Virus record (IMG/VR): IMGVR_UViG_3300005288_000003
Location: 1 to 64,000 of that record
Direction: 5' to 3' (one strand)
Source: a virus
Length of the DNA: 64,000 nucleotides
Both the position numbers and the translations under genes were made by a program. The notes below the pieces were generated by a model, which worked only from the letters and a program-made list of their open reading frames with translations, did not search any database and had not been told where the DNA came from. Positions 22,374 through 58,150 of this stretch are shown one piece after another; the first letter of the stretch is position 1; each line of letters starts with the position of its first letter.

Positions 22374-22404
22374 GGCCGACATCACAAACAACGGAGGAAA
22401 CACA

Positions 22405-41504: not shown

Positions 41505-41519
41505 AACAGCCTCGCTGAA

Positions 41520-41789: not shown

Positions 41790-42115
41790 GAGCCGAAGTT
41801 GAATTCGACTACCTCCTTCACCAACAGGAATAGTTTGTCGTACTCACCAGCAAACTCCATGTCGAAGTTGATGCCAACACTGCCCTTCGAGCATGTGCTA
41901 ACCAGTTCAACGATCAGTTGTTCAACGTTCTGGTCGAGATTATCGAACAGGATATTCAGAGCTGCACCAAGATCACCACCACCTTGCAATGTTGCAAAGG
42001 AAGGGCCGATCAGTTTGGTAAGTTGTTTCAGTACGCGAGTACCACGCATTGCAGGGAAGTGTGTGAGTAGGTATTCTGTGCCAAGGATGGTCACGTGTTT
42101 TTGGCCGATTGCCAT
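41759..42115 (-). CDS. Tail assembly chaperone
   Basis: Position between tube genes and tape measure; ends ...VEFNFGSVF. Confidence 0.75.
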   Translation of the reverse strand: MAIGQKHVTILGTEYLLTHFPAMRGTRVLKQLTKLIGPSFATLQGGGDLGAALNILFDNLDQNVEQLIVELVSTCSKGSVGINFDMEFAGEYDKLFLLVKEVVEFNFGSVFTLLGSAV

Positions 42116-42129
42116 ATTATGTTCTCCTG

Positions 42130-42660: not shown

Positions 42661-43164
42661 TTAAAATACCCCGAACTGTTTAAGGATTGGAAGGGTGCTG
42701 CTGGCAACCAACAGGGAATCTTCGATAGCGCTGGTGTCTTCGTTACCGCCGATGGTGAACACCACATCTGAGCAGCCGAATACCCATTTACGTTCTGACA
42801 TTTCAGTTCCAAAGTCTACGTCTGGAATCGATTCTACCCACGCCGAAGCTGCTAGGAAGTTTGTCTGTCCACGTCCATCTTTGATGAACAATGGGAATTT
42901 ACCCATGTGGGTAGTTGAGTCAATGTTGTAAAGCATGGACAGGATGTTGTTGCTGGATGATGATTGCATCAGCGTCAGTTCAACTCTGTATCCTGTGTCG
43001 TCGAAGTACATGCGGGCAATCTCACCGTCCATAGCTCTTACCTTATAGAACGGTTTGCAGTCTTTTATAATTCGAATGAATGTGCCGTCAATGTATCCTG
43101 TAACGGAGTGCATCCCCGCGAGGGTAACTGTTACGTCGGAAGGCGAGTATGTCGATAGTGCCAT
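42661..43164 (-). CDS. Tail tube-like protein (paralog 2)
   Basis: TYSPSDV...LMQSS.SN.ILS...D..G. Confidence 0.65.
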   Translation of the reverse strand: MALSTYSPSDVTVTLAGMHSVTGYIDGTFIRIIKDCKPFYKVRAMDGEIARMYFDDTGYRVELTLMQSSSSNNILSMLYNIDSTTHMGKFPLFIKDGRGQTNFLAASAWVESIPDVDFGTEMSERKWVFGCSDVVFTIGGNEDTSAIEDSLLVASSTLPILKQFGVF

Positions 43165-43179
43165 TTTATTTTCTCCAAT

Positions 43180-43212
43180 AAAAAGGGGCCGCCATCGTTA
43201 GATGGAAGCCCC
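43180..43212 (-). terminator. Rho-independent terminator after the tail tube gene
   Basis: GGGGC..CCATC/GATGG..GCCCC followed by TTTTT. Confidence 0.7.
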
Positions 43213-43219
43213 AGCGATG

Positions 43220-43747
43220 TTAACCAATCCACTTAGCGTCGATTGAACCACCCAGTGTCGTAATAACGTCTTGGTCTTCTGGTGAGAGAACCGCGTTACC
43301 ACCGATGTAGGTGTCAAGGTTGTGAGCGTGCAATACCCAGTCACGTGTCTGCATCGAGTTAGCGAATGCAGAGTTTGGAACTACACCAACATAAGCGTCG
43401 TCGCTAAAGAAGCGGCTACGGCCAGAGGCGTCTGAGATTTGCAGAGAGAACAAACCAGAGCTGTTACGGGTAGCCGCGTCGTTTGCGTAAAGCAAAGACA
43501 GGATATCGTTAGAAGCAGAAGTTTGTTGCAGGCTCAAAGTGACTTTAGCACTTTTGTTTGCGTTGTAAATACGTGTCGATGTGTTGTCAGCACCAGTGTA
43601 CATGGTGAATGTTTCAGCAACACGTTCGATTTGTACAATGCTGTCTTCACTGTACCCGCTCACAATGTGAGCAATACCCGAAGAGCGTTGTGTGATAACG
43701 ACGTTCACATCATTTGGAGCGAACGTTGCTAGACGTTGAGTAGCCAT
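43220..43747 (-). CDS. Tail tube protein
   Basis: TFAPNDV...LQQTS.SND.LS; follows the sheath gene. Confidence 0.8.
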   Translation of the reverse strand: MATQRLATFAPNDVNVVITQRSSGIAHIVSGYSEDSIVQIERVAETFTMYTGADNTSTRIYNANKSAKVTLSLQQTSASNDILSLLYANDAATRNSSGLFSLQISDASGRSRFFSDDAYVGVVPNSAFANSMQTRDWVLHAHNLDTYIGGNAVLSPEDQDVITTLGGSIDAKWIG

Positions 43748-43778
43748 TGATTATCTCCTGTTAGGGATGTAACCGTAA

Positions 43779-45065
43779 TTAAACGGTTACAGTTCCACGG
43801 ATTTTGACGAAGTGGATAGCACCAGCCAGACGTGCTTCGAATGTGATGCCGTCGAAGATACGCTGCGCTCGCAGGTTAGCCGAAACAGACAGTACATCTG
43901 GAACAGTAACGATTGGAGCTGGGCTTTCGGCCAGACCACCTGCACGAATACCATCATTCAACTGGGCACGGATTTCGGCCTCGATGATTGCAGCACCGGC
44001 TGATGTGTAAGGGATTTTCTTGCTGTTTGCCATACGGAACCACAGGCGTTCTTTCATGCGTTGTTCCAGCCAGTCAACGAAGACCATAACGTCGATCCAC
44101 TCACCACCGAACATCTTACCGCCGATAGTTGTGTTCAGACCACCAACAGTTTCGTAGGTGTTCCCGTTTTTGCCTTGGATGTGCTGTGCTTCGGTATCCG
44201 ACAACTTGCTGACCGAGAAGCCGCTCAGTGTCTTATACGCCCATGTGTTCGAGCCCGGTTGTTCTTGCAGTTGGTATCCGACCCACGAGCATTCAGGGAA
44301 CATTGTATCAGCGTCAGCCGACCATAGTCCGAATGTACGTTGGTATGTCAGAGCTTTCAACTTGCTGAATACATCGTCTGTAGCAGTTCCTTTGACATCT
44401 AGATCAGCAGATGAAGTACCGAATACTTTCTTCTGTGCTTCGATAACACCAGCTACGGCCAGTACATCAGCTTCGAGGTGAGATTCGATTGTCAGAGCAT
44501 ACCAAGTGTTGTTAGCACTTTGAACTGCTGAGATGGTGTCTGGCCAGCTTTCAGTAGATGGCTGCGAAGACTTGCTCAGGTTAGGTGAGACTTTCAACGA
44601 CCAATCCACAGTCGAAGTGATTGTCAGAGTACCGTCGAGGTTGTCTACAACACTAACGCCAGTAACTGGAGTAACAGTGTAGGCTGCTTTCAAACCTGTA
44701 GCGATCTGAATAGCTGTGTCAAGTGCTGCTGCTGTGTACGAGATAGTTACGCCACTGATTGTCAGAGTGTAGCTAGTCGAAGCGATAACGCTTACCACGT
44801 TAACAGTTGCACCCGGAATCTGACGACGACCGATTACAATGTTGGCAGGCTTGAGGGTTTGTCCGAACAGTTTGCTAGCCGCGATGTAAGCTGTGTCCGT
44901 CGAGGCGAAGTCATCAGCTACAGCAAGCAAGCTGCTGTATACACGGGCACGTTCAACAAAGTTGGTGTGTGCAGAAATGAATAGAGGGACGTTGAAATTG
45001 GTCTGAGCAACCGCAGCAGTTTCGCGGCTGATCTGGATGTCAATGATGTCCGTAAGTTGAGTCAT
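43779..45065 (-). CDS. Tail sheath protein (DUF3383-like)
   Basis: PGSNTWAYKTL.G, GEWIDV....DWL, KIPYT..G, LAGAIH.V. Confidence 0.9.
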   Translation of the reverse strand: MTQLTDIIDIQISRETAAVAQTNFNVPLFISAHTNFVERARVYSSLLAVADDFASTDTAYIAASKLFGQTLKPANIVIGRRQIPGATVNVVSVIASTSYTLTISGVTISYTAAALDTAIQIATGLKAAYTVTPVTGVSVVDNLDGTLTITSTVDWSLKVSPNLSKSSQPSTESWPDTISAVQSANNTWYALTIESHLEADVLAVAGVIEAQKKVFGTSSADLDVKGTATDDVFSKLKALTYQRTFGLWSADADTMFPECSWVGYQLQEQPGSNTWAYKTLSGFSVSKLSDTEAQHIQGKNGNTYETVGGLNTTIGGKMFGGEWIDVMVFVDWLEQRMKERLWFRMANSKKIPYTSAGAAIIEAEIRAQLNDGIRAGGLAESPAPIVTVPDVLSVSANLRAQRIFDGITFEARLAGAIHFVKIRGTVTV

Positions 45066-45079
45066 GTTGATGCTCCTGA

Positions 45080-45658
45080 TTATGGATTAGGGTTTGTTGT
45101 AACGTCAATGTCATTGATGATGATATGATCCGGTTCTCGCCCAGCATCATGGTAGATGCCTGTAAGTCCAGTGAACTCAATCCAGTCAATGTCATCTACT
45201 GTCATCGAGCAGTATGCGAATGTCACGTCCAGTTGATAGACCATGTACATATCTGTTTCGCGTCTGACGGGCAGCCGTCTTGCTGACATCTTCTTGTGCA
45301 AAGACAAGTTGTTCAGCTTCATCAGCTCAAACCCTTTCGGGGTTCTCATTGCTAACTCAAGTTGCTGTGCCATTTCCGCAGTTGTAGTGTTTGCATCATA
45401 CTTCCCATGGAACTCGAACCTGACTTGCGTCAAACTGTCCTGAATGGTTGTAGTGATGGCATCGCCTGTGAGCGGGTTGATCTTCCCAAGGTGGGATGTG
45501 TATTGCTGTCCAATGACATCAAGCTTTCGCACGTTAATTACGCAATAAGGCGTCGTGGGTTCAGGGCCGTTGGTGTATGCAAAGATCGTTGTCCACGTAG
45601 GGAACAATCCATTCACAAGTTTGTATAGAGCGTCTTCGAGGTCTTGATAGATGTTCAT
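45080..45658 (-). CDS. Tail terminator / neck protein
   Basis: Synteny immediately upstream of the sheath gene. Confidence 0.6.
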   Translation of the reverse strand: MNIYQDLEDALYKLVNGLFPTWTTIFAYTNGPEPTTPYCVINVRKLDVIGQQYTSHLGKINPLTGDAITTTIQDSLTQVRFEFHGKYDANTTTAEMAQQLELAMRTPKGFELMKLNNLSLHKKMSARRLPVRRETDMYMVYQLDVTFAYCSMTVDDIDWIEFTGLTGIYHDAGREPDHIIINDIDVTTNPNP

Positions 45659-46023
45659 GTCAGTTCCACCCGCATGCAAATTGCTTTGTAGTGGTTAAGG
45701 ACACCCATCGCGTAGTTGATGACTTTCATCACCTCGTATTTATCGCCTTGCCAAATGAACTGGTCAGCAGCGTGACCGTTTGGCCCCTCTTTCAGTTCGA
45801 ACAGTTCAGTCCCTTTAGTGTAAATCTTCAAGCAGGCTTTCGATCTGTCCGACTCTGGAAGTAGGATGGTGTCGGATGATTTCAACACCGGCTGTACGTT
45901 GCATACAACCTGAACAAGCGAATCAGTACCGGGGACAGGACGACCGTTGACATACGTCGTAGATGTTCTGCGGGTAATGTCGAGTGTTACTCGCCCGGTA
46001 GAGAGCAATGGTGGGTAAAGCAT
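45655..46023 (-). CDS. Head closure protein
   Basis: VQP......LPE..R, AD...WQG..YEV. Confidence 0.65.
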   Translation of the reverse strand: MLYPPLLSTGRVTLDITRRTSTTYVNGRPVPGTDSLVQVVCNVQPVLKSSDTILLPESDRSKACLKIYTKGTELFELKEGPNGHAADQFIWQGDKYEVMKVINYAMGVLNHYKAICMRVELT

Positions 46024-46033
46024 GGTATCACTC

Positions 46034-46498
46034 CTATCGGTGGATTTGGAACTTGACCGAATTCATCATGAACTCTGTGTCTCGTAGTGGCGTGTTACGT
46101 CCACCTTTCTTCTCGATAGTCTTCGGAGAGTTGCTACCGGGATAGTTGAGGATCGTTGTTTTCATTTGCTCGGCAACACCGTCACCAAGTTGTTGAAGCA
46201 ATCTTTGAATTGCACGACCGTTAGTCAATGCACTCTCGAAGATGGCCTTCATCATGCTAGTCATGTGCTTCTGTGTTGAGGCAGCCATGAAAGTCTCTTC
46301 CATAAATGGTCGAGTTGGGTTATGTACAGTACCGAATTCGTTGTAGTAGGCAACTTGAGCGACAGGCAGGTTATCATTCTCAGGACCGTATCTGTCTTCC
46401 TCAAAGAAACCGATATCGACTTCCGTACCATTTAATTGGGCCAGCCGCTTTTGCAGGGCTGGAAGCTTTCGAGTTTCTACTTTAAAAGTAAAGCCCAT
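46034..46498 (-). CDS. Tail completion / neck protein
   Basis: VA..NEFGT...P.RPF, NSP.TI..KG...PL.DT. Confidence 0.75.
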   Translation of the reverse strand: MGFTFKVETRKLPALQKRLAQLNGTEVDIGFFEEDRYGPENDNLPVAQVAYYNEFGTVHNPTRPFMEETFMAASTQKHMTSMMKAIFESALTNGRAIQRLLQQLGDGVAEQMKTTILNYPGSNSPKTIEKKGGRNTPLRDTEFMMNSVKFQIHR

Positions 46499-46937
46499 TG
46501 CAGGCTCCTTCGCAGTTTCCCGAAAGCAGGATGTTTCGTTGTTCGATCTTGTAGACACCAATTCCAATACGGAAGTTGTCAGGATCGTTTCTGTTAGCTA
46601 GCATGTCTGAACGAGAGATACCACCAGCATATGGAACAGCTAGGCTGATCGCAATGTTCGGGTCTTTCAGAATCAGTTGCAATGCTTTCATGTAGTTGCT
46701 GAACCAGTCACCACCATAGACTTCAATGTCTCCAGTGCGTTCACGGGTCATGCGAGTTAGTTTGAACAGGATGGCCCGTACAGCATCCATCGTTGCTCTG
46801 TTCTCATTCCCGTTGGCTGCGTCCAAGAAGTATTGGTAATCAGCATCCGTCAGGTATTCGATGTCATCCCAAATATCTCCGACATTCAAACGAATGCGGT
46901 CAACTGGGTTGTTCTGTGGATCGCCTGTATATGGCAT
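46482..46937 (-). CDS. Head-tail adaptor
   Basis: D.IRL.VGD.....L.D; follows the major capsid gene. Confidence 0.7.
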   Translation of the reverse strand: MPYTGDPQNNPVDRIRLNVGDIWDDIEYLTDADYQYFLDAANGNENRATMDAVRAILFKLTRMTRERTGDIEVYGGDWFSNYMKALQLILKDPNIAISLAVPYAGGISRSDMLANRNDPDNFRIGIGVYKIEQRNILLSGNCEGACNGLYF

Positions 46938-46957
46938 GGTGTTCTCCTAAAACAATG

Positions 46958-46981
46958 AAGGGGCGCTACAAGAGCGCCCCG
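46958..46981 (-). terminator. Terminator-like hairpin after the major capsid gene
   Basis: GGGGCGCT-CTTGT-AGCGCCCC-TTCATT. Confidence 0.7.
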
Positions 46982-46986
46982 TTCAA

Positions 46987-48045
46987 TTAGGCACCAACGA
47001 TACCCTTAACGATCAACTGTGGGCGACGTAGGACGCTCAGGAAGTTGGACTCGGTTTGGATTTCGATCATTTGACCACGACCGTCACCGTATTCAAAGGC
47101 GTACATTTCTTGCCCTTGGGTGTTGATGAAGTCGAAGTGATCCGCTGGAGCGTGGTAAGTAACGAAGTTGTCGCTCGAACCTTGGTTGCTTGGCAGGAAG
47201 TAGCACTCGCCAACTGGGATGTAACGCACGCCATCTGGACCAACACCACGGTATTCCACGTAGGTGATGTTCGCGATAGTGAACTCACGGTAGCGGTCGT
47301 CGTAGCCATTGGCTTTCAGACGATCTTTCAGGATTTGTGGCGATTGCTGGTGAGCAAGGTACAAAGCCTTCATGGTTGGGTGGCCGATCAACTTCGAGAA
47401 GAACTCTGGCGAAGCGATAGCGTAGATGTCACCACGGATTGAACCGTCGTGTGCGTTGTCCTGAATCGCAGCGAAGACTTGTTCGGTCTTGGCGATGATG
47501 TCAGTTGTTGCTGTGTTCAGTTCGAAGTCAACAGTTGTACGTGTTGCACCGAATTGAGTGTACCAGTCGTAAGTGACTGTGCCGTTTGGAGCGTAGGCAG
47601 TACCAGTTGTGATGGTGTGCCAGATAGCTTTTTCTTTTGTAGCCGACCAGCTTTGACGGATGGTTTCCAGTTTACGGGCACGAACTGCTGCCAGTGTTTC
47701 CAGAACGTCTTGACCGAACGCACGCTTACCTTGGATGTCACGCGGGGTGATAGCATCGTCAAGTGTGAAGTGTGGAACAGCAAAGCTCATCATACGACGG
47801 CTGTGGTCTGCCGACACTTGGTGACGTTGGCCACGGTGTACGTCAGTTACCAGACCGAAGCCCTTGGTGATTTCTTCCAGAGTGATCGACTCTTGGTTAG
47901 TCGTATCCATGTTGAAGATACCGAGTTGTTGGCCCAGTCCCCAAACGTTCGGGATGATCATCAGTGGAGCTGTCAGGTCGGTGTATTCGTAGTTGTCGCC
48001 ATTGAAGCTACGAACTGCGGCCTTAGCGATTTGAACTTGAGACAT
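46987..48045 (-). CDS. Major capsid protein (lambda gpE-like)
   Basis: PHF..DD.I.P.DIQG.RAFG, ESN.L....RP; strong codon bias; synteny. Confidence 0.9.
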   Translation of the reverse strand: MSQVQIAKAAVRSFNGDNYEYTDLTAPLMIIPNVWGLGQQLGIFNMDTTNQESITLEEITKGFGLVTDVHRGQRHQVSADHSRRMMSFAVPHFTLDDAITPRDIQGKRAFGQDVLETLAAVRARKLETIRQSWSATKEKAIWHTITTGTAYAPNGTVTYDWYTQFGATRTTVDFELNTATTDIIAKTEQVFAAIQDNAHDGSIRGDIYAIASPEFFSKLIGHPTMKALYLAHQQSPQILKDRLKANGYDDRYREFTIANITYVEYRGVGPDGVRYIPVGECYFLPSNQGSSDNFVTYHAPADHFDFINTQGQEMYAFEYGDGRGQMIEIQTESNFLSVLRRPQLIVKGIVGA

Positions 48046-48061
48046 TTATATGCTCCTTGAA

Positions 48062-48445
48062 TTAGTGGATTGCAACGTCGATTTGATCGACAGCGAAGAT
48101 TTGCAGGGTAGCCAGCTTGGTGAAAGCCGTTGCCTTGTTGGCGTCCGATACACCAGCTCCGAATACCAAAGCACGCTTACCAACTTTCGCTTTACCGCGA
48201 GCCAGTAGCAAGGCTTTGCTGAATTCAGCAGCAGATGGACGAGTCAGGTCGTCGATCAGAATGTAAGTTGCGTCACCTACAGTTGCAGGAACAACCAGTT
48301 GGAAGGCGCTGTCCAATACCGAACCAGTGAGGGTGGCGTTGGTTTGTGACTTGTTGATCACTTCGCGAGTAGTACCGCTGTCAGGGAATTCTTCCCATTT
48401 CAGCCAGTTGCTCAGACGCTGAGTGTCAGATGCGTAAATAGCCAT
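48062..48445 (-). CDS. Head decoration protein
   Basis: LSNWLKWEE...TRE...GSVL...ARG.A.V; upstream of the major capsid gene. Confidence 0.7.
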   Translation of the reverse strand: MAIYASDTQRLSNWLKWEEFPDSGTTREVINKSQTNATLTGSVLDSAFQLVVPATVGDATYILIDDLTRPSAAEFSKALLLARGKAKVGKRALVFGAGVSDANKATAFTKLATLQIFAVDQIDVAIH

Positions 48446-48464
48446 TGTTTATTCTCCGTAGAAA

Positions 48465-49349
48465 TTATTTGCCGTATTTGGCTTTGAGGATGCGAGTTGT
48501 TGCGTCAACTTCATCGGCAGTTTTTGCACCGTCACCAGCAACGCCAGCTTCGTTAAACATTTCCGACTCGGATTCAGCAGCTTTTTGTACAGCGAAAGTT
48601 TCAACAACAGCAGCGAATGCTTCTGCGTCCAATGGAGCCAGAGACTTCATCAGTGCTTCAACTTTGTCAGCAGCGACTACAGCAGCTAGTGCTTCTTGAC
48701 GTGATTTTTGAACAGCGGCAACAGCAGCAGTTTCGAATTCAGCAAGTTTGGCTTCGGCAGCTTTCAGCACTTCTGCTTGAGCGTCCAGCGACTTCTGTAC
48801 TTCGGCAACAGCATCAGCCACAGCTTTGGTCACGAATTCTTCGTGAGCCGATTTCAGGATGGTTTCCAAGGGAGTGTCCTCTTGTTCGATTTGGGTTTGT
48901 TCTGGAAGAGCAGCGAACGCTTTCTCCAGCATTTCTTGATCAGCCATAAGGGCCAGATGTTGTTCTGGAGTCAGAGCTGCAAGAGCCTTCTCCACGTCTT
49001 GAGCTTTGTATACCGATTTCATAATGCTGATGGATTCAACACGAGAGTCGATGTAATCTTTCTCGTTGGTATCAGGATACTCGGTGCGGCCATAGCCCAT
49101 AACAGCAGAAAGAACTTCTGCATCATCCCAGTAGAGTCCGAAGAACTTACGAAGGAATTCAGGGAATTGCATTTCGACAGTAACCGATGTGGCCTTGTCT
49201 ACTTGCTCTTGTGTAATGTCGAATGTCGCTTTGGTGATAAGAGTTGTGATCCCATTGGCTGGGCCACCTTGGTGCTTACCGACCAGAGCTACGTGAGCGC
49301 CTTCGTGTTCGAACTTGATGTCCGTTAGGCGACGTGTGGCTTTTGTCAT
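48465..49349 (-). CDS. Scaffolding protein
   Basis: HVALV....G.ANG N-terminus, Ala/Glu coiled coil. Confidence 0.7.
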   Translation of the reverse strand: MTKATRRLTDIKFEHEGAHVALVGKHQGGPANGITTLITKATFDITQEQVDKATSVTVEMQFPEFLRKFFGLYWDDAEVLSAVMGYGRTEYPDTNEKDYIDSRVESISIMKSVYKAQDVEKALAALTPEQHLALMADQEMLEKAFAALPEQTQIEQEDTPLETILKSAHEEFVTKAVADAVAEVQKSLDAQAEVLKAAEAKLAEFETAAVAAVQKSRQEALAAVVAADKVEALMKSLAPLDAEAFAAVVETFAVQKAAESESEMFNEAGVAGDGAKTADEVDATTRILKAKYGK

Positions 49350-49807
49350 TCTGTAAGTTCCTCTACGGTTGCCATAGCGCCAATAGAGACGCCATTGATA
49401 TCACCTGTCTTCACACCTTCCCACATAGCATCAGAGGCTTCTGTACCTTCGGGGAAGTGCCACCATTGCAGCCATGTACCCTTCTGTACAGTCACTCCGT
49501 TATCCAGATTGAAAGTTGCAGGGGCGATGAACGATTGAACAATGTCAGCAGATTGTGTTTCGATCTGGTGGAAAAGGTTAGCTACTTGACAGTGTGTGTT
49601 GAAGTTGTTGCAAGCCTTCTCTACTTCGACTGCGGTATATGTATCACCGTGCAAGTCTACAGTGTCAGGCTCCAACACAACAAAGAGCGCCATGCGCTTT
49701 TCATCATCAAGTGCTTTTGTAACTTCTACTTGAGGCTCTTCTTTGGCTGAACCGCCGAAGTGCTTCTCAATGAGGGCTGCGATGCCCTCAATAAGTGCGT
49801 TGCTCAT
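49346..49807 (-). CDS. Prohead protease (XkdF-like)
   Basis: VLEPD.VD.HGD, NLFH, KGTW, G.SIG. Confidence 0.75.
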   Translation of the reverse strand: MSNALIEGIAALIEKHFGGSAKEEPQVEVTKALDDEKRMALFVVLEPDTVDLHGDTYTAVEVEKACNNFNTHCQVANLFHQIETQSADIVQSFIAPATFNLDNGVTVQKGTWLQWWHFPEGTEASDAMWEGVKTGDINGVSIGAMATVEELTE

Positions 49808-49815
49808 GATAACTC

Positions 49816-51258
49816 CTATGCGTTATTCGCGGCAGAGTTATCTCGGCCACTAGCTGTTTTGGATGCACCATTACCAATTCCGGCTTGTCCAGCTTGGCTT
49901 TGTCCGCCCATGATTTCATCTTCCTTTACAGGAGCGTCATCAGGACGACGAACGATCTTGAGACTATCGCGAATCTTGTTCATAACAGGACGGTCGCGTT
50001 CAAGACCACCAACACTGCCAATACGTTGAATGGCTTTGGAGAACTCATCAAGGTCAACTTCGTCAAGATCACCGTAGACTAGCTTTGGAAGCTTAACGTC
50101 TGGAGATACACCGTTCATTGCGAACAGTTGTTTAACGAGGTCGTTGTTCAGCACATCTTGGATTTCTTGTAGGCGGGCTTCGATAGCCATCGCCATGATG
50201 TTTGTTTTTGCACCAGCCAGAGAGTAAGAACCAACTTGGTCTTGACCCATCTTCAACATGTCAGCAAACAAGACCATTAGGATTTTGTTGTCCCAACGCT
50301 TGATGATTGCGTCCGTGTCGTACATCTTCCCGCCCATAGTCGAAGTTAGTTCGAACTTGAACAGAGGTTGACGTGAATCAGGATCGAATGCTTGGGGAAG
50401 GATCAAACCACTTTGTTCGTTCATCTGGATATTCCGAATGACGTTCTTGTAGTATTCGTAGATCGCTTTCTCAGCGTCAGTTGCGTCTGCACTCATGTAA
50501 CGTGGCGGAAGATACAGGGTTGGCATACCGTTCATGTCACGGGTCACACCAACTGCTTCCTGTTCTTCGATCAGGGTACGATATTTCCAAGCGTGGTATG
50601 CAGCACGGAGAGGACTATTTCCTTCCGGGTTGTCACGCTTTACATCGACTCTGAAATGCAGGAATTTCTTGCGAGGGATGTCAATTGTTCCCGTTGCGTT
50701 CAGTAGCTTGGCATAACGGTCTGTACCGTCTGTGATGCACGCTAAGCTCTGCTGGACACCGATAAGGTCACGCCCGTCATCCGAGTATAGCCATTTGTTT
50801 ACCGTTGCCTGTGAGCGAACTGGGAGCTTCTTGAAGCCTACCTTGTTGTCGTTGTATTGGGAGCCATTGTCCCATGTGCGACGGCGGTAGACTTTCTCGT
50901 TAATGCAATACCCGTAGGTAAATGCACTGGTAACTTCTTGGATGAAAGATCGCCAACTGTGATCCATGTCGTGCATGGCTTCTTCGAGGAATTTGGCATT
51001 GGCTTTCATTTCAGCGGATGGGTCGATTCCAGTATCAACGATCCATTCAACGCGGCTCACCATCATTTCGAACAACGAAAGAGCGGCTGCGATTGTGGCA
51101 TCTTGTGCCATAAGTTGGAAAGTTCTGTTGGCTTCGGGGAAGCGAAGTTCTTTACGAGCTTCTTCCTGAATTCGACCACCGTGTTGTTTGAGTCCTACGA
51201 CACCCAACTCACCCAGTCGAAGACGGGGGATAGATGCCTTTTCGATAACTTCGGTCAT
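49816..51258 (-). CDS. Portal protein
   Basis: NPEG.S.LR.AY..WKY, GSYSLA; follows the terminase gene. Confidence 0.88.
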   Translation of the reverse strand: MTEVIEKASIPRLRLGELGVVGLKQHGGRIQEEARKELRFPEANRTFQLMAQDATIAAALSLFEMMVSRVEWIVDTGIDPSAEMKANAKFLEEAMHDMDHSWRSFIQEVTSAFTYGYCINEKVYRRRTWDNGSQYNDNKVGFKKLPVRSQATVNKWLYSDDGRDLIGVQQSLACITDGTDRYAKLLNATGTIDIPRKKFLHFRVDVKRDNPEGNSPLRAAYHAWKYRTLIEEQEAVGVTRDMNGMPTLYLPPRYMSADATDAEKAIYEYYKNVIRNIQMNEQSGLILPQAFDPDSRQPLFKFELTSTMGGKMYDTDAIIKRWDNKILMVLFADMLKMGQDQVGSYSLAGAKTNIMAMAIEARLQEIQDVLNNDLVKQLFAMNGVSPDVKLPKLVYGDLDEVDLDEFSKAIQRIGSVGGLERDRPVMNKIRDSLKIVRRPDDAPVKEDEIMGGQSQAGQAGIGNGASKTASGRDNSAANNA

Positions 51259-51267
51259 GGCCTCGCC

Positions 51268-52743
51268 TTAATAAAGTCTGAATGGGTTCGTCTGTGTCAT
51301 CACTGGAACAGTGAAGTCAGGCAAGTGAATGTCTGTAGACAAGTTGTTGAATGCGTCCGATGTGGCGTCCACCATGTCGTCTTTGATGTTGCGAGAACCG
51401 TCAAAGCGAACTAGCTCAGAAATGTAATCTCCGTTCCATTCTCCAACTACCATCTGCACGCCACCAGCTTCTGCAACAGCAGCGAAGGGAGCGAATCGGG
51501 TAACTTTGGATTTGTTGGTGGCTTTCATTCGAGCGTAATAGCCATAGTCGGCCAAGTCTCGAATCAACTGGGCAGCATAAGCTTTACCAGCAGCACCGGG
51601 GTCTTGCGGAATGATGATAGTTACATCGTCGCCATCTTGTTTGGCAGTTTCAAGGATGAGGTCGAATACGCCGCCATGCCTGCGTCTGTCACGCACCACA
51701 TGTTCGATGGTATACATACCGGATCGATCTTTCGACATCAATACACCAGCAGTCCAGTCGGGCTCAGGGTTCGTGTCGGAAGGCATTGTACCGCTAATGT
51801 CCCAAGCTCTTACACGCTTACCTGCGTTCAGGGGCGGCATTGGAATCTTGTGAACCCACTCTTCTTTGAAGTATCCGCTACCTTCTTCTCGGGCAAGCCA
51901 ACTACCGTGAAGTAGACGTGCTTTCTCTACACGACCCAAACCTTTGAGCATCGCAACATAGCCGGGATCGGCTTTGCACAATACAGGGTTGTCGTATACG
52001 TTACCTGAAATGAAGCAGAAACTAAGAGGTTGACATTGATCGTGGTGATCGACTGGAAGGCCGGGAGTGTGATACTTCTCATACACTTCTTCCCATGAAG
52101 CACCCCAGTGCATCTTGTCGTTCAAACGGACAAACCATCTTGTAACGCCGTCACGTTCGGGGATTGGAATTCCAGTATCTGGATCAAGCCACCATTCGAG
52201 CCAATGACGCAAGAAGCTGTCATAGTCCGGGTTACATGTGATTTTCATGTGTGGTTTTACGGAACAAGCCGGGTTACGCATACGAGATAGCAAGTATACG
52301 ACCATAGCTTCTTCGAATTGTTGTCCTTCGTCAACGAGGAACTTACTTACCTCCCAACCTTGGAAGTTGTCCTTGGCTTTGAGGTCTTGGAAGTGACGGA
52401 GGAATACCTTAGCTCCGCTAGAGAAAGCGAAGTGGTCTTGTTTTGCTCTCCACTTAACCTTCGGATCAATCAACGAGAAAAGAGCCATTGCTTTTTCTAG
52501 AAGACCACCGGGGCCAGTGAGTTGTGGGGTTGTTCTACGAACGAGAACGCCACGGAAATTTGGATCGTGGACATGTTTCAGAAAGTCCATTACGCCTAAG
52601 TAGGATTTACCTGCCCCAGCCGCTCCACCAAATACAGTGATGTTTGCGTCTGCGTGCATGAAGTCATATTGCTTTGGTGACTTTGGCCCGATGATGTTTG
52701 GGTTCAAATCGAATACTGGATATTCTTTTGGCTTGAGAACCAT
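51268..52743 (-). CDS. terL: Terminase large subunit
   Basis: GGAAGAGKS Walker A, VDE Walker B, TCNP, RAWD, DDMVDA nuclease motifs. Confidence 0.95.
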   Translation of the reverse strand: MVLKPKEYPVFDLNPNIIGPKSPKQYDFMHADANITVFGGAAGAGKSYLGVMDFLKHVHDPNFRGVLVRRTTPQLTGPGGLLEKAMALFSLIDPKVKWRAKQDHFAFSSGAKVFLRHFQDLKAKDNFQGWEVSKFLVDEGQQFEEAMVVYLLSRMRNPACSVKPHMKITCNPDYDSFLRHWLEWWLDPDTGIPIPERDGVTRWFVRLNDKMHWGASWEEVYEKYHTPGLPVDHHDQCQPLSFCFISGNVYDNPVLCKADPGYVAMLKGLGRVEKARLLHGSWLAREEGSGYFKEEWVHKIPMPPLNAGKRVRAWDISGTMPSDTNPEPDWTAGVLMSKDRSGMYTIEHVVRDRRRHGGVFDLILETAKQDGDDVTIIIPQDPGAAGKAYAAQLIRDLADYGYYARMKATNKSKVTRFAPFAAVAEAGGVQMVVGEWNGDYISELVRFDGSRNIKDDMVDATSDAFNNLSTDIHLPDFTVPVMTQTNPFRLY

Positions 52744-52792
52744 CGTGCCTCCTTGCTGTAAGGTTAATGGGAATGTCCCGCTTTATGTGAGT

Positions 52793-52820
52793 AGTATAAC
52801 CCGGAAGTTGAGTTTGTCAA
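52793..52820 (-). promoter_or_regulatory. Promoter TTGACA-N16-TATACT upstream of terL
   Basis: Hexamers in the intergenic gap. Confidence 0.7.
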
Positions 52821-52852
52821 CCCCCGAGTGTAACATTTATCCAATCAGACTG

Positions 52853-53065
52853 TCAAGCCTTCAATGCAGCAATAATTGCGTTAATAGCAACCTTGTTTGC
52901 ATTCGCCAAAGCTTGTGCCGTTGGTAGGTCAGTAGCGTTCGCAGTTGTAACTGGAGTTAGGGCAGCAACAGCAGCAGCCACTCCAGAGTCGATGAACGCT
53001 CCAGCTTTGATACCTTCAAGCAGTCCAAGTTGTGCAACCAGTGCGTATTGTTCCGATGTAGTCAT
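52853..53065 (-). CDS. Small Ala-rich protein (head fibre-like)
   Basis: ATDL.TAQALANA.K..INAIIAALKA. Confidence 0.6.
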   Translation of the reverse strand: MTTSEQYALVAQLGLLEGIKAGAFIDSGVAAAVAALTPVTTANATDLPTAQALANANKVAINAIIAALKA

Positions 53066-53112
53066 TTTGATTTCCTTGAGTTGAGTGTGCCGTGATGGCA
53101 AATTGTAGAAAC

Positions 53113-53136
53113 GAGAAAACCCACGCGAGGTGGGTT
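53113..53136 (-). terminator. Terminator ending the tRNA cluster
   Basis: AACCCAC-CTCGC-GTGGGTT-TTCTC. Confidence 0.65.
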
Positions 53137-53202
53137 ATCTTGACAAGACGTATCGGCTAAGGTAGCTCTTGGCTACATGCGAGTGCTCCGATTGTCTATG
53201 TT

Positions 53203-53274
53203 TGGAGCAGAATGTCAGAATCGAACTGACCTCATCAGCTTGGAAGGCTGGGCGCTCACCTTGAGCAATCCTGC
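53203..53274 (-). tRNA. tRNA-Gly(TCC), short D-arm
   Basis: Cloverleaf, CT-TCC-AA loop, TTCGA T-loop, encoded CCA. Confidence 0.8.
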
Positions 53275-53628
53275 ATGAATTTCTCTATGACAGTTGGCAC
53301 AGACCAGAATACACTTATCAACTTCTGCTAGCATCCTTTCGACGGTAGAGTAGTTGTTGATCAGACTCGATGGTTTGTTCTCTTTAACAGACGGGTCTAC
53401 ATGATGGAACTCCAGAGCCGCACTGCACTTATCGTATCCACAGATAGAACAACTATCTCCGAACAGCTCGTACAGAATGCGACGCTTTTCTTCCACAAAA
53501 GAACGTCTGTTGTTTTCCTCGCAAGGTATGCACAAAGGTTTGTACTTTTGCTTACCGGAGGTTTGTTTGCCATTTGTATAGAACTCTGTCAAAGGTTTCA
53601 CATCGAGGCAGGTTTTACACTGCTTCAT
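53215..53628 (-). CDS. HNH endonuclease whose C-terminus reads into tRNA-Gly
   Basis: KQCKTC...KPL.EFY, CSICGYDKC..ALEFHH, C.LVCANCHREIH; GAGG RBS before ATG at 53628. Confidence 0.8.
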   Translation of the reverse strand: MKQCKTCLDVKPLTEFYTNGKQTSGKQKYKPLCIPCEENNRRSFVEEKRRILYELFGDSCSICGYDKCSAALEFHHVDPSVKENKPSSLINNYSTVERMLAEVDKCILVCANCHREIHAGLLKVSAQPSKLMRSVRF

Positions 53629-53652
53629 GTTTACCTCATTCAGTTTGTAATT

Positions 53653-53729
53653 TGGTGGGGCCGGAACGAATCGAACGTTCGACCTGTGGGGTTTCAAGCC
53701 ACCGCTCTAACCTACTGAGCTACAACCCC
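53653..53729 (-). tRNA. tRNA-Phe(GAA)
   Basis: Cloverleaf, CCA. Confidence 0.85.
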
Positions 53730-53734
53730 TTGTG

Positions 53735-53809
53735 TGGAGCCATCTATGGGAGTTGAACCCATCTATTACTGGTTTGCAATCAGCACCCTAGCCGCTCAGG
53801 CAAGATGGA
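53735..53809 (-). tRNA. tRNA-Cys(GCA)
   Basis: Cloverleaf, U73, CCA. Confidence 0.8.
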
Positions 53810-53816
53810 CATAATT

Positions 53817-53893
53817 TGGTGGATACAGGTGGGGATCGAACCCACGACATCCGCATTGCAAGTGCGGCGCTCTCCCATCTGAGCTACTGACCC
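53817..53893 (-). tRNA. tRNA-Ala(TGC)
   Basis: Cloverleaf, G3-U70, CCA. Confidence 0.88.
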
Positions 53894-53900
53894 ATGTGTT

Positions 53901-53974
53901 TGGGGTGACGCAGAGATTCGAACTCTTTCAACCGGGTCACAACCGGAAGTCTCAGCCAGAGAGAACGACGCCAC
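53901..53974 (-). tRNA. tRNA-His(GTG)
   Basis: GTG anticodon, C73, CCA. Confidence 0.75.
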
Positions 53975-54168
53975 AGTCAAGCGTGTTGCTTATCGCGTTT
54001 GCTGCCGCTTTCTCCCAGCGATACCCGAAGGCTTGATAGGACGGTACGATGTCTGCCCTCACTGCACGAATGCTTTCGGGTATAACACCTTTTCAACAAA
54101 ATTGGGTGCAGGACCGGGAGTGCATGCCCGAATTTCCCAACCGTCTCCTTGACAGTTGCCTACATAAT

Positions 54169-54242
54169 TGGTCAGGGTGGAAGGTAACGCTCCTTCTTCT
54201 CAGGATTCCAAATCCAGCACATCACTTTAATGCTTCACCGAG
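54169..54242 (-). tRNA. tRNA-Pro(TGG), atypical
   Basis: TT-TGG-AA loop, CCA; non-canonical T-loop and acceptor mismatches. Confidence 0.6.
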
Positions 54243-54247
54243 ATAAA

Positions 54248-54373
54248 TCATTTCGTGATTCGAATACCGAACCACCAGAAGTCGATCCTTACGGACCAAC
54301 GAGAATCGTTTTGTCCAAAGCCAACTCGCACCATACGGTTGTTGGGTTCCATTTGCACTTTATTGAATCTCAT
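54248..54373 (-). CDS. 41-aa protein within the tRNA cluster
   Basis: AGGAG RBS; MRFNKVQMEP...RIDFWWFGIRITK. Confidence 0.6.
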   Translation of the reverse strand: MRFNKVQMEPNNRMVRVGFGQNDSRWSVRIDFWWFGIRITK

Positions 54374-54392
54374 TTCATACTCCTGTTTAAAT

Positions 54393-54477
54393 TGGTGGTT
54401 GTTCAAGGACTCGAACCTTGGATGTATCATTGTGCCGGGTTACAGCCGGTTCTCTTCGCCGCTAGAGTAAAACAACC
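54393..54477 (-). tRNA. tRNA-Tyr(GTA)
   Basis: Cloverleaf, long variable region, CCA. Confidence 0.85.
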
Positions 54478-54485
54478 ATTTAAAT

Positions 54486-54562
54486 TGGCAGGCAATAGAG
54501 GACTCGAACCTCCCATCTGCTGGTTAACAGCCAGCGACCCACGCCCGGTGAGATCATTGCCT
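54486..54562 (-). tRNA. tRNA-Asn(GTT)
   Basis: Cloverleaf, G73, CCA. Confidence 0.85.
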
Positions 54563-54663
54563 AGAAATCTTCCACGTATGTTTTGGCTCGCCGTGGAACG
54601 AGGGGCCGAGATTTTTATTCCGCTTCGGACGCAGAGCGGTACAGTGGGGAGCAACCCAGTGTT

Positions 54664-54744
54664 TGGTTGCGAAGGGTGGAATCGAACCACTTGCGTCCGG
54701 TTATGAGCCGGTTGACACTTGCCTTGCGTCTTAGCGCCCTCGCA
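54664..54744 (-). tRNA. tRNA-Met(CAT), extended D region
   Basis: CT-CAT-AA loop, TTCGA, CCA. Confidence 0.75.
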
Positions 54745-54750
54745 TTTGTT

Positions 54751-54826
54751 TGGTTGCCGGAGCAGGGCTTGAACCTGCGACCTACCGCTTATCAAGCAGT
54801 TGCTCTACCAACTGAGCTATCCGGCA
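54751..54826 (-). tRNA. tRNA-Ile(GAT)
   Basis: Canonical cloverleaf, CCA. Confidence 0.9.
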
Positions 54827-54832
54827 TTAAAT

Positions 54833-54906
54833 TGGTGCCCCATCACGGAATCGAACCGCATTCTCAACGTTACAAAGGTCATGTAATACCAATATACTAA
54901 AAGGGC
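54833..54906 (-). tRNA. tRNA-Thr(TGT)
   Basis: Cloverleaf with weak anticodon stem, CCA. Confidence 0.75.
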
Positions 54907-55051
54907 ATGTAGCCCCTTACGAGGGCCATGCGGGCGTAGTTGCATCATGCTTGAGCCTTACCACAGGCCCACTTTACCGCGTTGATGTTTGCGGGATAAG
55001 CCTACCGAGATGGCTTTCTCATTGCGACATTTCTGTCCTCGGGCAACAAAT

Positions 55052-55126
55052 TGGCGGTTTATAAGGGAGTTGAACCCTTCCCTCTGGCGTGACAGGCCAG
55101 TGTACTAACCGATATACTAATAGACC
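55052..55126 (-). tRNA. tRNA-Asp(GTC)
   Basis: Cloverleaf, G73, CCA. Confidence 0.88.
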
Positions 55127-55130
55127 AAAT

Positions 55131-55207
55131 TGGTACTCTGCCGGGGACTCGAACCCCGTTCATGAGGGTGAAAACCTCATATCCTAAACCGCGTAGACGA
55201 GCAGAGC
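55131..55207 (-). tRNA. tRNA-Glu(TTC)
   Basis: Cloverleaf, CCA. Confidence 0.88.
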
Positions 55208-55217
55208 ATTTGTTTCT

Positions 55218-55343
55218 TTACTTGGCAGAAGGTGGTTTACCCGGCTTGCCTTTGTTCGGATGACGACCTTTAGGGTCTTTGCGAGAAGCCTTGTCAACCG
55301 GAGCGTGTTCTTTTGTAGCATCGTAATACTTCGACATCTTCAT
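55218..55343 (-). CDS. 41-aa basic peptide (not in ORF track)
   Basis: AAGGAG RBS; MKMSKYYD...KGRHPNKGKPGKPPSAK. Confidence 0.6.
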   Translation of the reverse strand: MKMSKYYDATKEHAPVDKASRKDPKGRHPNKGKPGKPPSAK

Positions 55344-55362
55344 TTCTCCTTTGTTTTGAATT

Positions 55363-55438
55363 TGGTACAGATGATAGGATTCGAACCTATCTGGTACGCC
55401 TTCGTAGGGCGCTGCCTATCCAATCGAGCCACACCTGT
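55363..55438 (-). tRNA. tRNA-Arg(ACG)
   Basis: Cloverleaf, CCA. Confidence 0.88.
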
Positions 55439-55460
55439 ATATCTTGTTGCTATAAGGAGG

Positions 55461-55488
55461 ATTCTACACGACATTTGCACAATGTCAA
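55461..55488 (-). promoter_or_regulatory. Internal tRNA-cluster promoter TTGACA-N16-TAGAAT
   Basis: Consensus hexamers. Confidence 0.8.
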
Positions 55489-55502
55489 GCGTTTATTTAA
55501 AA

Positions 55503-55953
55503 TTATTTTAGATTGTGATCAAATTCCCAATGGCAGTTCGGACAAAGAAGCATCAGGTTACTGCGGGCATTGATCACACTCAGCATCGTATCGTCAGGGA
55601 AGTCAGCCACTGCTCTGATATGTGCAACCTCTACGTGCTTATCATATCCACACTTTTGACATAAAAACAGGCTCAGCAGCTACAGAGGCTCTTGCTCGAC
55701 TGCGAACTAAAGCATAGGCGGAAGACCTATGATGTTTCTCGTAGATAGCTTCTGCAAGCGTCATATCCTTCACGATGTGAGCACTATGTTCATCACAGAC
55801 AGTTCTTCGACCGCTTACAGGGATTGAACATACTTTACACGCTCTTTGTACTCTGGCTCTCTTCGGCGTCTTGTTCGTCACTGTTGTGGCACAAGTCCTA
55901 CTGCAATATTTTCTATTCTTTGTGGGCGTTCCACAATTTCCGCAATCGATCAT
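55503..55953 (-). pseudogene. HNH endonuclease split by a 1-nt frameshift in a T5 run
   Basis: N-terminal Zn-finger ORF stops at 55642; the +1 frame continues CQKCGYDKHVEVAHI...NLMLLCPNCHWEFD; 451 nt = 3n+1. Confidence 0.8.
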
Positions 55954-55966
55954 GATGCTCCTTATT

Positions 55967-56041
55967 TGGTAGACCTGCTTGGGATCAAACCAAGACTAAC
56001 TCTTTAGAAGAGAGTTGTGCGATTCACTACACTACAAGTCC
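55967..56041 (-). tRNA. tRNA-Arg(TCT)
   Basis: Cloverleaf, CCA. Confidence 0.8.
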
Positions 56042-56189
56042 AGAAGGCTCCTGCACATCCACTGTACCAATCCAGCATGCTGCTATCACAATCAAGACCC
56101 TTAATTCGAGGACGACATTTATAGCACGCAGTCGTCTGTGCGTCAACACCCTGAGTTGGTTTCAGAGTCATACCAAGGCGCGGTACGTT

Positions 56190-56265
56190 TGGAAGAGGAT
56201 ACTGGAATCGAACCAGTCTAAACGGAGTCAAAGTCCGGTGCCTAACGCCAATCGGCCAACCCTCA
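56190..56265 (-). tRNA. tRNA-Gln(TTG)
   Basis: Cloverleaf, CCA. Confidence 0.85.
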
Positions 56266-56407
56266 ATTAAATAGTACCGGCCATCAGGAAAGACATGGCC
56301 ATGCCCTCCATCCGACCTAGTTGACTTCCTCTGTATTCTTTGTAGGCTCCAATACCCAGTATCACCTGCCGGGGCTCGAACCCGGTATACAGTTACTCAT
56401 CAATGTT

Positions 56408-56494
56408 TGGTGCCCCCAGTCGGACTCGAACCGACACGCATATTTCAGCCACAGGGTCTAAGCCTGCTACGTCTACCAATTCCATCACAGGGAC
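56408..56494 (-). tRNA. tRNA-Leu(TAG)
   Basis: Cloverleaf with variable arm, CCA. Confidence 0.88.
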
Positions 56495-56508
56495 GTGATA
56501 TTTCAATT

Positions 56509-56582
56509 TGGTGCTTCTTGATGGAATCGAACCACCGTAGCCACCGTGTAAGGATGGCGTTCTACCATTAAACTAAAGAAGC
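56509..56582 (-). tRNA. tRNA-Val(TAC)
   Basis: Cloverleaf, CCA. Confidence 0.88.
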
Positions 56583-56583
56583 T

Positions 56584-56668
56584 TGGTCGGGATAGTGAGA
56601 CTCGAACTCACATGGCCGAAGCCCACAGGGTTTGAACCTGCTGCGAATACCAGTTCCGCCACATCCCG
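56584..56668 (-). tRNA. tRNA-Leu(CAA)
   Basis: Cloverleaf with variable arm, CCA. Confidence 0.88.
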
Positions 56669-56674
56669 TTTATT

Positions 56675-56763
56675 TGGAGGCTAGTGTGAGATTCGAACTC
56701 ACGAGCCGTTTCCGACTGTCGGTTTTCAAGACCGGTGCTTTTTATCCACTCAGCCAACTAGCC
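56675..56763 (-). tRNA. tRNA-Ser(TGA)
   Basis: Long variable arm, CCA. Confidence 0.85.
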
Positions 56764-56769
56764 ATGTTT

Positions 56770-56859
56770 TGGTAGCGGATGTAGGATTCGAACCTACGGG
56801 GCCATTTCTGACCCGACGCTTTAGCAAAGCGTTAGATTAAGCCACTCTCTCAATCCGCT
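56770..56859 (-). tRNA. tRNA-Ser(GCT)
   Basis: Long variable arm, CCA. Confidence 0.85.
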
Positions 56860-56866
56860 ATAAATT

Positions 56867-56943
56867 TGGTCGGACGCCTCGGACTTGAACCGAGTAAGGC
56901 CGGATTAAAAGTCCGGTGCCGGGACCACTTTAGCTTGCGTCCA
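56867..56943 (-). tRNA. tRNA-Lys(TTT)
   Basis: Cloverleaf, CCA. Confidence 0.85.
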
Positions 56944-56977
56944 ATGTGGAGCATTAAATCACATGGGATATATCGTG

Positions 56978-57295
56978 TCAACCATGTAGTTGGAAAATTG
57001 TTGCTGATGGTGCTTCACCGTTGCCGACATCTTCACCCTCGCCACGAGCGATAGCCTTCAAAGCCTTGTCAGCCTTCAATAGAGCTACATACATGTTGGC
57101 GATGTCCTGTGCCATTTTGAATTGCTTCTCTGGCGTCAGGTTGTCTGCGGTTGCTGCTTCGACCATACGATTCAGAGCAGGGCCAAAGGCGCGCTTGAGG
57201 ATTCGTAGGCCACCATCTAGTTCTGAGCGTTCTGCTGACTTCGCTAGAGCTTCCTCTCGCGTCGGTCTGCCACCCTTGTTTGGTGTTGTTGACAT
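56978..57295 (-). CDS. Hypothetical protein, candidate terminase small subunit
   Basis: N-terminal KGGRP, helical; co-oriented upstream of the tRNAs and terL. Confidence 0.45.
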   Translation of the reverse strand: MSTTPNKGGRPTREEALAKSAERSELDGGLRILKRAFGPALNRMVEAATADNLTPEKQFKMAQDIANMYVALLKADKALKAIARGEGEDVGNGEAPSATIFQLHG

Positions 57296-57408
57296 ATGTC
57301 ATCGTTCCTTCAAATAGGTGTGATCCGTGGAATTACTCGGTGAAAGGAGGAGAACACCAAAACCCGGATCACATAAACTGTAGAGACATTATCTGTCTGT
57401 ATGTGATG

Positions 57409-57437
57409 ATTGTAACATCAGTTCTTGCACCTGTCAA
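57409..57437 (-). promoter_or_regulatory. Promoter TTGACA-N17-TACAAT
   Basis: Consensus hexamers upstream of a leader hairpin (TGTGATCCG/CGGATCACA). Confidence 0.75.
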
Positions 57438-57458
57438 TAGCACAGAAGAAATATAATG

Positions 57459-57659
57459 TCAATAATCTGTTGTTGATGATTTCATGGCTGTCACACCATC
57501 GATGGGATACCGCCCGCCTACATACTCTCTTTCAGGTGCGGAATGCTTGCTCATAAATTGGCATGCAAAACACAAATCTTCTTCTTGTTTTGTATCTGGA
57601 TTATATCGAGGGATTTCATGTTTTGTTAGCGCGTTATTACATGCTCTGCATCGGGACAT
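57459..57659 (-). CDS. Small Zn-finger protein
   Basis: CRACN...EDLCFAC; AAGGA RBS. Confidence 0.65.
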   Translation of the reverse strand: MSRCRACNNALTKHEIPRYNPDTKQEEDLCFACQFMSKHSAPEREYVGGRYPIDGVTAMKSSTTDY

Positions 57660-57790
57660 GGATTGGTTCCTTCTATTGGTTTGTTATTTCACATAGTCTC
57701 CTTCTATATTTCATATGATGATGGATTGTATGTGGATGGGTTAAGTGGTTGATTTATAAGATGTTGATCTTATGGGGATAGATTCTTAAC

Positions 57791-58064
57791 GGAAGGTAGA
57801 CTCAGCCCAAGGGATCGCCATACACAAAAGTGCCTAAGACGAAACCTTGGTCTACCTTCCACAAGTTCTCATGAGGATGAGTTCTTGAACGGCCTGTATG
57901 GACAGGAGACAGCGTTTGCTGTCAGGTTCTGGTCATTCCCTCCGAAGAGGTCAGCTCCACGCTATAACCAGATGAGACTCAGCTTGCCCGTGTGGAATCC
58001 TCTTCATGGGCTACATCGTTGGCCGGTGAGTGATGCTTTCGCAGACATATCTCTCCAACGACAT
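57791..58064 (-). ncRNA. Structured ~275-nt RNA, copy B
   Basis: Homologous to 22031-22305; perfect 11-bp GGAAGGTAGAC/GTCTACCTTCC stem; GAAA and TTCG tetraloops. Confidence 0.8.
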
Positions 58065-58069
58065 TCACG

Positions 58070-58150
58070 ACTATAACCGACAAGCGGCTTAATGTCAAGC
58101 AATATATCTCATTCCAGTGTATTGACAACTCAGATAGGCAGTGTTACTAT
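58070..58150. promoter_or_regulatory. Divergent sigma70 promoters
   Basis: Minus strand TTGACA-N17-TATAGT (58098-58070); plus strand TTGACA-N17-TACTAT (58122-58150). Confidence 0.8.

Follow-up and report, generated by a model that had tools for sequence, protein, structure and literature searches.

An uncatalogued two-domain RNA family with a covarying direct repeat at two divergent early junctions of Pseudomonas phages

The window analyzed here (64,000 nt, the first 64 kb of a 97.8 kb phage record in IMG/VR) encodes two copies of a structured RNA that belong to an uncatalogued, two-domain family. Copy B, the subject of this analysis, is about 300 nt long and lies on the minus strand at 57766–58065, where it was matched by both of our covariance models. 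Its paralogue, copy A, is on the same strand at 22005–22309. Both copies consist of a 5′ domain followed by a 3′ hairpin that is bracketed by a direct repeat. The source phage is of the Pseudomonas type, with 84% identity to Pseudomonas phage ventosus and 81% to UAVern over the tested stretch. A cmscan of the window against Rfam 15 at the gathering thresholds returned tRNAs only. At E-values up to 10, copy B had five chance-level matches and copy A had none. We did not find a paper describing the element in the literature. A 2023 catalogue of phage structured-RNA candidates contains only unnamed motifs of 29–151 nt.

The family was modeled with two covariance models in place of a full-length one, R1 for the 5′ domain and R2 for the 3′ domain. 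Copy B matches R1 at 57926–58065 (132.6 bits) and R2 at 57768–57910 (123 bits), and copy A scores 128.5 and 135.1 bits against R1 and R2. Across 43 distinct sequences of the 5′ domain, 97.9% of the cells are paired and 19 of 23 pairs have compensatory changes. The covariation score of this domain is 0.77, versus 0.17 with shuffling and no more than 0.13 when partners are slid, and none of 500 shuffles reaches the real value. The 3′ domain is similar (31 sequences, 97.3% paired, compensatory changes in 17/25 pairs), which brings the count for both domains to 36/48. The earlier claim that copy B is a real RNA thus stands, as covariation in both domains far exceeds that of the shuffled and slid controls. 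The 3′ domain has two invariant G-U pairs that are possible only in the minus-strand sense, which fixes its strand as minus. The whole element has at least seven helices. A 3 bp pseudoknot in the 5′ domain is a tentative candidate, with two of its pairs invariant and one covarying with 11 exceptions. Copies A and B share invariant blocks in the same order, with compensatory changes between them, and are homologous. A BLASTN of copy B against its own genome did not recover copy A.

The 5′ domain of copy B (57926–58065, minus strand, as are all parts of the element) is made up of the closing helix P1 (58061–58055 with 58022–58016), an internal loop with invariant purine-rich and C-rich strands (58055–58044 and 58032–58023), the hairpin P2 (58011–57986) and the helix P3 (57972–57967 with 57933–57928), which holds a hairpin capped by UUCG. 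The 3′ domain is a long hairpin (57791–57862) with conserved internal loops that covaries across the 31 sequences. Just 5′ of the hairpin is the first copy of a phage-specific direct repeat, X1 (57866–57890), and just 3′ of it is the second, X2 (57766–57790). The preliminary description had ended the element at 57791. The RNA is real, but the conserved end is at ~57766, 25 nt further on, because the 25 nt stretch before the hairpin recurs after it. In copy A, X1 is at 22131–22107, the hairpin at 22103–22031 and X2 at 22030–22005. This X2 overlaps the Shine-Dalgarno sequence of the gene that follows (21998–21669), which encodes a DUF4326 protein (Pfam E-value 2.5e−21). A-type copies have no spacer between the element and the gene.

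Copy B starts almost at its promoter. The leftward promoter (TTGACA-17-TATAGT, 58070–58098, minus strand, 11/12 consensus matches) has a −10 box whose last base is 58070, and helix P1 of the RNA runs from 58061. Thus, the transcript would begin 1–4 nt before the fold, and the leftward early transcript is predicted to open with the ~300 nt of copy B. Back to back with this promoter is a rightward one (TTGACA-17-TACTAT, 58122–58150, plus strand, 10/12) that precedes a hypothetical gene, a DUF7375 gene and a PhoH-like gene. Junction A (22313–22373) has the same layout, with TTGACA-16-TAGAAT promoters at 22340–22313 on the minus strand and 22346–22373 on the plus strand, each with 11/12 matches. 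The unit divergent from copy A includes an RNA ligase gene (Pfam RNA_ligase, phrog_968; 23005–23919, plus strand). The preliminary description had recognized two divergence points with back-to-back TTGACA promoters, a leftward promoter that feeds straight into the RNA, and unrelated genes behind the two copies. All three observations were confirmed: the promoters are sigma70-like pairs at both junctions, and copy A is followed by the DUF4326 protein, copy B by a 66-aa CxxC...CxxC protein. Homologous back-to-back promoters have been annotated independently in the records of phages KIL1 and PAK_P4. We did not find an RNA annotated at the copy A and copy B sites in either record, and both sites are also blank in the RNA-seq-based re-annotation of PAK_P4.

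BLASTN found relatives of copy B in 183 phage records and relatives of copy A in 153, and all but one of the records are Pseudomonas phages. With R1 and R2, exactly two copies were found in each of ten complete genomes (the source phage, JG004, PAK_P4, KIL1, phiPsa374, Amme-3, ventosus, XD2, phiK7A1 and PPSC2), which represent Pakpunavirus, Otagovirus, Flaumdravirus, P. putida phages and the source phage. A maximum-likelihood tree separates an A clade (support 0.99) from a B clade (0.78), and each includes Pakpunavirus, Flaumdravirus, Otagovirus, P. putida phage and source-phage members. Since both clades span several genera, the duplication predates the genera and both copies have been kept. 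Copies A and B are ancient paralogues. Their surroundings are also conserved. B copies are always located between an operon read away from the RNA, consisting of two small genes plus PhoH or a Clp protease, and a set of small genes followed by the tRNA array. A copies are back to back with a short divergent unit, which holds the RNA ligase gene in the source phage, ventosus, KIL1 and PAK_P4. The RNA always reads in the same direction as the genes behind it, and both this orientation and the short distance to the next gene are strictly conserved. The view that the element is not specific to one gene was well founded. It occupies two syntenic places, both divergent early junctions, in 10/10 genomes of this Pseudomonas-phage clade.

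A search of the whole record of PAK_P3 (Nankokuvirus) with R2 did not find a copy. PAK_P3, a P. aeruginosa myophage, encodes two non-coding RNAs upstream of tRNA genes, sRNA1 and sRNA2, which have been described as processed 3′-UTR fragments (Chevallereau 2016, PMC4933390; Putzeys 2024, PMC10914365). They are like copy B in being non-coding and upstream of tRNA genes, but they are 3′-UTR fragments and not a 5′ leader. As candidate homologues they were rejected; their best scores against R1 and R2 with filters off, 8.6 and 7.5 bits, are noise.

Distant members of the family were sought by motif scans of IMG/VR and of species-representative genomes. A pattern scan of IMG/VR with two 9-mers was too unspecific and gave unrelated prophage contigs. 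The scan of species-representative genomes gave 78 loci, 76 of which are chance matches and two true members, both on contigs of metagenome-assembled genomes (MAGs). These two contigs, L242 (3007–3290) and L204 (1758–2040), are labelled as Marinobacter sp. and an Armatimonadetes bin. Both members adjoin phage-type genes (a small terminase and an intein-bearing large protein), and the contigs are probably phage contigs binned into MAGs. Distant members retain the 5′ domain at 32–98 bits and range from 42 to 61% in GC content, and most fail the R2 model. They have a shorter hairpin at the same place, which in most of them ends in a U-run like an intrinsic terminator. Distant members precede genes for a DEAD/ResIII helicase, a small terminase subunit or an HD-domain protein or, in two cases, tRNA arrays. 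The low-GC members L156/L172 (RNA at 9032–9184 and 6506–6658) and L147 are upstream of tRNA arrays on the same strand, with 19 and 3 tRNAs. Thus, the link to tRNA arrays recurs outside the Pseudomonas phages.

Several distant members are located directly behind a co-directional terminator, away from divergent junctions, and the family-wide rule is therefore an operon leader and not a divergent junction. Divergent-junction placement is a trait of the Pseudomonas-phage clade. The element had been proposed to be tied to genome architecture, with the positions of homologues as a check. That proposal describes the Pseudomonas phages, where the same two junctions are used in all ten genomes, but it does not extend to the distant members, which are found elsewhere, behind co-directional genes and terminators.

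The tract downstream of copy B (57660–57790) had been described as AT-rich and free of ORFs. It is 67% A+T, but its chief oddity is a C/A-rich run of 56 nt (57713–57768, minus strand) with 12 YC dimers and no G on the RNA strand, followed by a start-stop mini-ORF. The G-free run has the look of a rut (Rho-loading) site or of a spacer without structure. The mini-ORF (57689–57703, minus strand) consists of a strong Shine-Dalgarno sequence and AUG-UGA, ~30 nt before the gene for the 66-aa CxxC...CxxC protein (57459–57659, minus strand, phrog_10364). This gene is the first of the unit and has its own ribosome-binding site; a Pfam search with its product gave no match. Most B-type relatives have G-poor spacers (9–16% G). 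The depletion is strong in the source phage and its Otagovirus-like relatives and weaker in others. An ORF of 62–66 aa begins ~90–100 nt after X2 in most B-type relatives, and homologous mini-ORFs of 1–4 codons are found in ventosus and the Otagovirus-like relatives. We did not find a general enrichment of (ARN)n Hfq-type motifs in the spacer. The layout of the copy B spacer is that of Rho-dependent leader control as in enterobacterial leaders. Further down the leftward unit is an array of 18 tRNA genes (53203–56859, minus strand). A terminator-like hairpin at 53136–53118 (minus strand), directly 3′ of the last tRNA gene (tRNA-Gly, 53203–53274), is probably the end of the copy B transcription unit.

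An origin element had also been suggested, in which the transcript would prime replication or open the DNA as an R-loop at the two divergence points. ColE1 RNA II and the T4 oriF/oriG transcripts are likewise structured, promoter-driven RNAs that adjoin an A+T-rich stretch, both divergence points have the element, and its inverted repeat is flanked by direct repeats. In the window, however, such a stretch is present only at copy B, and the RNA over it is G-free, the least favorable composition for a persistent RNA:DNA hybrid. Compensatory changes that include G-U pairs point to RNA folding and not to sites in double-stranded DNA, the repeats of the two copies in one genome are unlike, and the fold is conserved in distant members far from divergence points. 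GC skew, proposed as a check, was non-diagnostic: its sign changes at 22.5 and 58.5 kb are two among 14 and coincide with gene-strand switches, and the global minimum is elsewhere, at 29.5 kb. We consider an origin function very unlikely, and this part of the preliminary description was not upheld.

A cis-acting sensor or attenuator leader is the reading of copy B that we prefer, tentatively and with less than even confidence. On this reading, the RNA would most likely gate the expression of the downstream genes. Its conserved 5′ domain, which has many invariant unpaired bases, would bind a conserved factor or small molecule, and the 3′ hairpin and its flanks would set the traffic of RNA polymerase and ribosomes entering the operon. 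At copy B, the read-out may be Rho-dependent, through the G-free run that resembles a loading site and the start-stop before the first gene, with an untranslated tRNA array behind. At copy A, the read-out may act on the ribosome-binding site next to the RNA. A leader fits the strict 5′ position, the promoter directly upstream, the co-orientation with downstream genes and the contexts of the two copies, and it fits the modular pattern of a conserved sensor plus a variable expression platform in the distant members. Riboswitch and attenuator leaders such as the T-box, cobalamin and M-box classes similarly have a conserved, covarying, sensor-like domain with invariant loops and, as in the distant members here, a more variable 3′ module that is terminator-like. 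Unlike those classes, the window RNA has no Rfam match, no U-run terminator and no coherent downstream pathway. A competing antiterminator helix was not demonstrable in the window hairpins. The downstream gene set (DUF4326, a Cys-rich protein with tRNAs, a helicase, a terminase and an HD-domain protein) is functionally incoherent, and a ligand, if there is one, would need to be a global signal. The leader reading also leaves the covarying direct repeat unaccounted for; we know of no bracketing direct repeat in leader classes of the T-box, cobalamin and M-box type.

The same heterogeneity of downstream genes would suit a stable, trans-acting RNA. Here cleavage would release the 5′ ~300 nt from the early transcript, and the freed RNA would build up and serve as a scaffold or decoy. 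Its partner would be a conserved protein of the host or the phage, such as Hfq, RNase E, RNA polymerase or a component of the ribosome. Many unpaired bases are invariant across phages of hosts with 42–61% GC, two non-redundant paralogues are retained in every genome, and the promoters that drive the RNA belong to the strongest early class. GOLLD and ROOL are large, ornate, phage-borne RNAs that also have a recurrent link to tRNA arrays, but their Rfam models do not match the window RNA, which is much smaller and always at the 5′ end of a transcript. The window copies are not followed by a terminator or a defined 3′ end, the orientation and the close spacing to the next gene are strict, and the repeat of copy A overlaps a ribosome-binding site. 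A search of the whole phage genome for a trans target of the repeat or of the RNA returned only chance-level 8–10-mers. We regard a trans-acting RNA as possible but unlikely.

A third reading, raised in the preliminary description, is a processive antiterminator like the put RNAs of phage HK022, in which the nascent RNA would bind its own RNA polymerase and make it resistant to terminators along the leftward arrays. As with putL and putR, there are two paralogous, promoter-proximal structured RNAs per phage, each heading an early operon and tied to no single gene, and the copy B unit has a long tRNA array that is not translated and would otherwise be a target of Rho. The put RNA is about 70 nt with two stem-loops. 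The window RNA is four times larger and multi-domain, has no sequence or fold in common with put, and both of its copies serve leftward promoters. A need for terminator read-through is not evident. Terminator-like sites barely exceed shuffles in the arrays (24 vs. 16.2, SD 3.6, and 23 vs. 18.2, SD 4.9), the arrays are rich in further promoters with 10–11/12 matches that have no RNA, and distant members come after terminators, not before them. Put-like antitermination is thus not favored, and we consider it improbable. Near-consensus host-type promoters (TTGACA, 16–17 nt, TAGAAT-like) crowd the leftward arrays at 4000–22400 and 40000–58100 (minus strand), e.g., at 57437, 55488, 52820, 18760, 17622 and 12121. 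The RNA is present only at the two outermost promoters of these arrays.

The direct repeat is the most unusual feature of the family. In every member, including both paralogues and the distant members, the 10–25 nt before the 3′ hairpin are repeated directly after it. The repeat differs between phages but is alike within each element. Mutual information in the alignment peaks, at up to 1.78 bits, in the columns for identity between X1 and X2, and in one of these all four letters are used with 100% identity between the two repeat copies. An element's own X1/X2 pair scores 10.0 on average, versus 5.6 for pairs across elements, and the repeats of copies A and B of one genome differ. In a candidate local hairpin that would present X1 as its loop, only 47% of the cells pair column-wise.

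We did not find a partner for the repeat in cis: the stretches complementary to it are short, vary in position and show no Watson-Crick covariation. Pairings of the repeat with the sister paralogue are no better within a genome than with foreign genomes. A strand-swap model involving the junction strand, the hairpin strands and the repeats was tried and rejected, as specific complementarity was found only in the hairpin itself. A further comparison is with the c4 antisense RNA of phages P1 and P7. c4, in the immI region, is a leader hairpin RNA whose flanking short sequences are alike within a phage and different between phages. The window RNA shares this layout of an operon-leader hairpin flanked by phage-specific short sequences, but its hairpin loops are not complementary to the repeats and a covarying Watson-Crick partner in cis is lacking.

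A perfect 12 bp inverted repeat bracketed by a 10–25 nt direct repeat could also be a feature of the DNA, such as a small mobile insertion with its target-site duplication or a pair of operators, placed in an older leader. Every member of the A and B clades, however, has it at the same site. Between close relatives, X1 and X2 change in concert and do not decay independently, and the interior of the hairpin is conserved and covaries as RNA. DNA assemblies from four sequencing runs of related phages contained no form without the hairpin and no joint across it. A DNA-level origin of the hairpin and repeat is something that we hardly expect. Two sites in related phages are of separate interest. 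In an Otagovirus-like B copy (L152, 8282–8441), X1 is followed by a 16 nt insertion that is in part a repeat of the motif before it, suggestive of slippage at the repeat. In a Pakpunavirus divergent promoter region (L159, 2927–2955), the assembly of one run splits into two contigs that overlap by 29 nt, and the other three runs bridge this break point.

A repeat that is identical within each element while drifting between phages, and for which no complementary partner was found in cis, in the phage genome or in the sister paralogue, might mark a mechanism unprecedented in bacterial leaders, in which the two repeat copies are interchangeable. We consider this doubtful, but it could take two forms. 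In the first, the downstream repeat, once transcribed, may displace the upstream one from a tertiary or protein contact, and so serve as a co-transcriptional timer. In the second, a joining event may skip or circularize the hairpin. The family also offers a clear natural example of covarying direct repeats, a type of conservation for which standard RNA-structure tools do not search.

Four results are added here: the rule of two paralogues per genome, the distant members, the covariation of the direct repeat, and the make-up of the spacer behind copy B. The RNA family is not annotated in any phage record examined. Pakpunaviruses, Otagoviruses and their kin are widely used in therapy and biocontrol, and they depend on the host RNA polymerase throughout infection. 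For these phages, a large RNA in two copies that heads the early leftward operons is probably a main control point of early infection.
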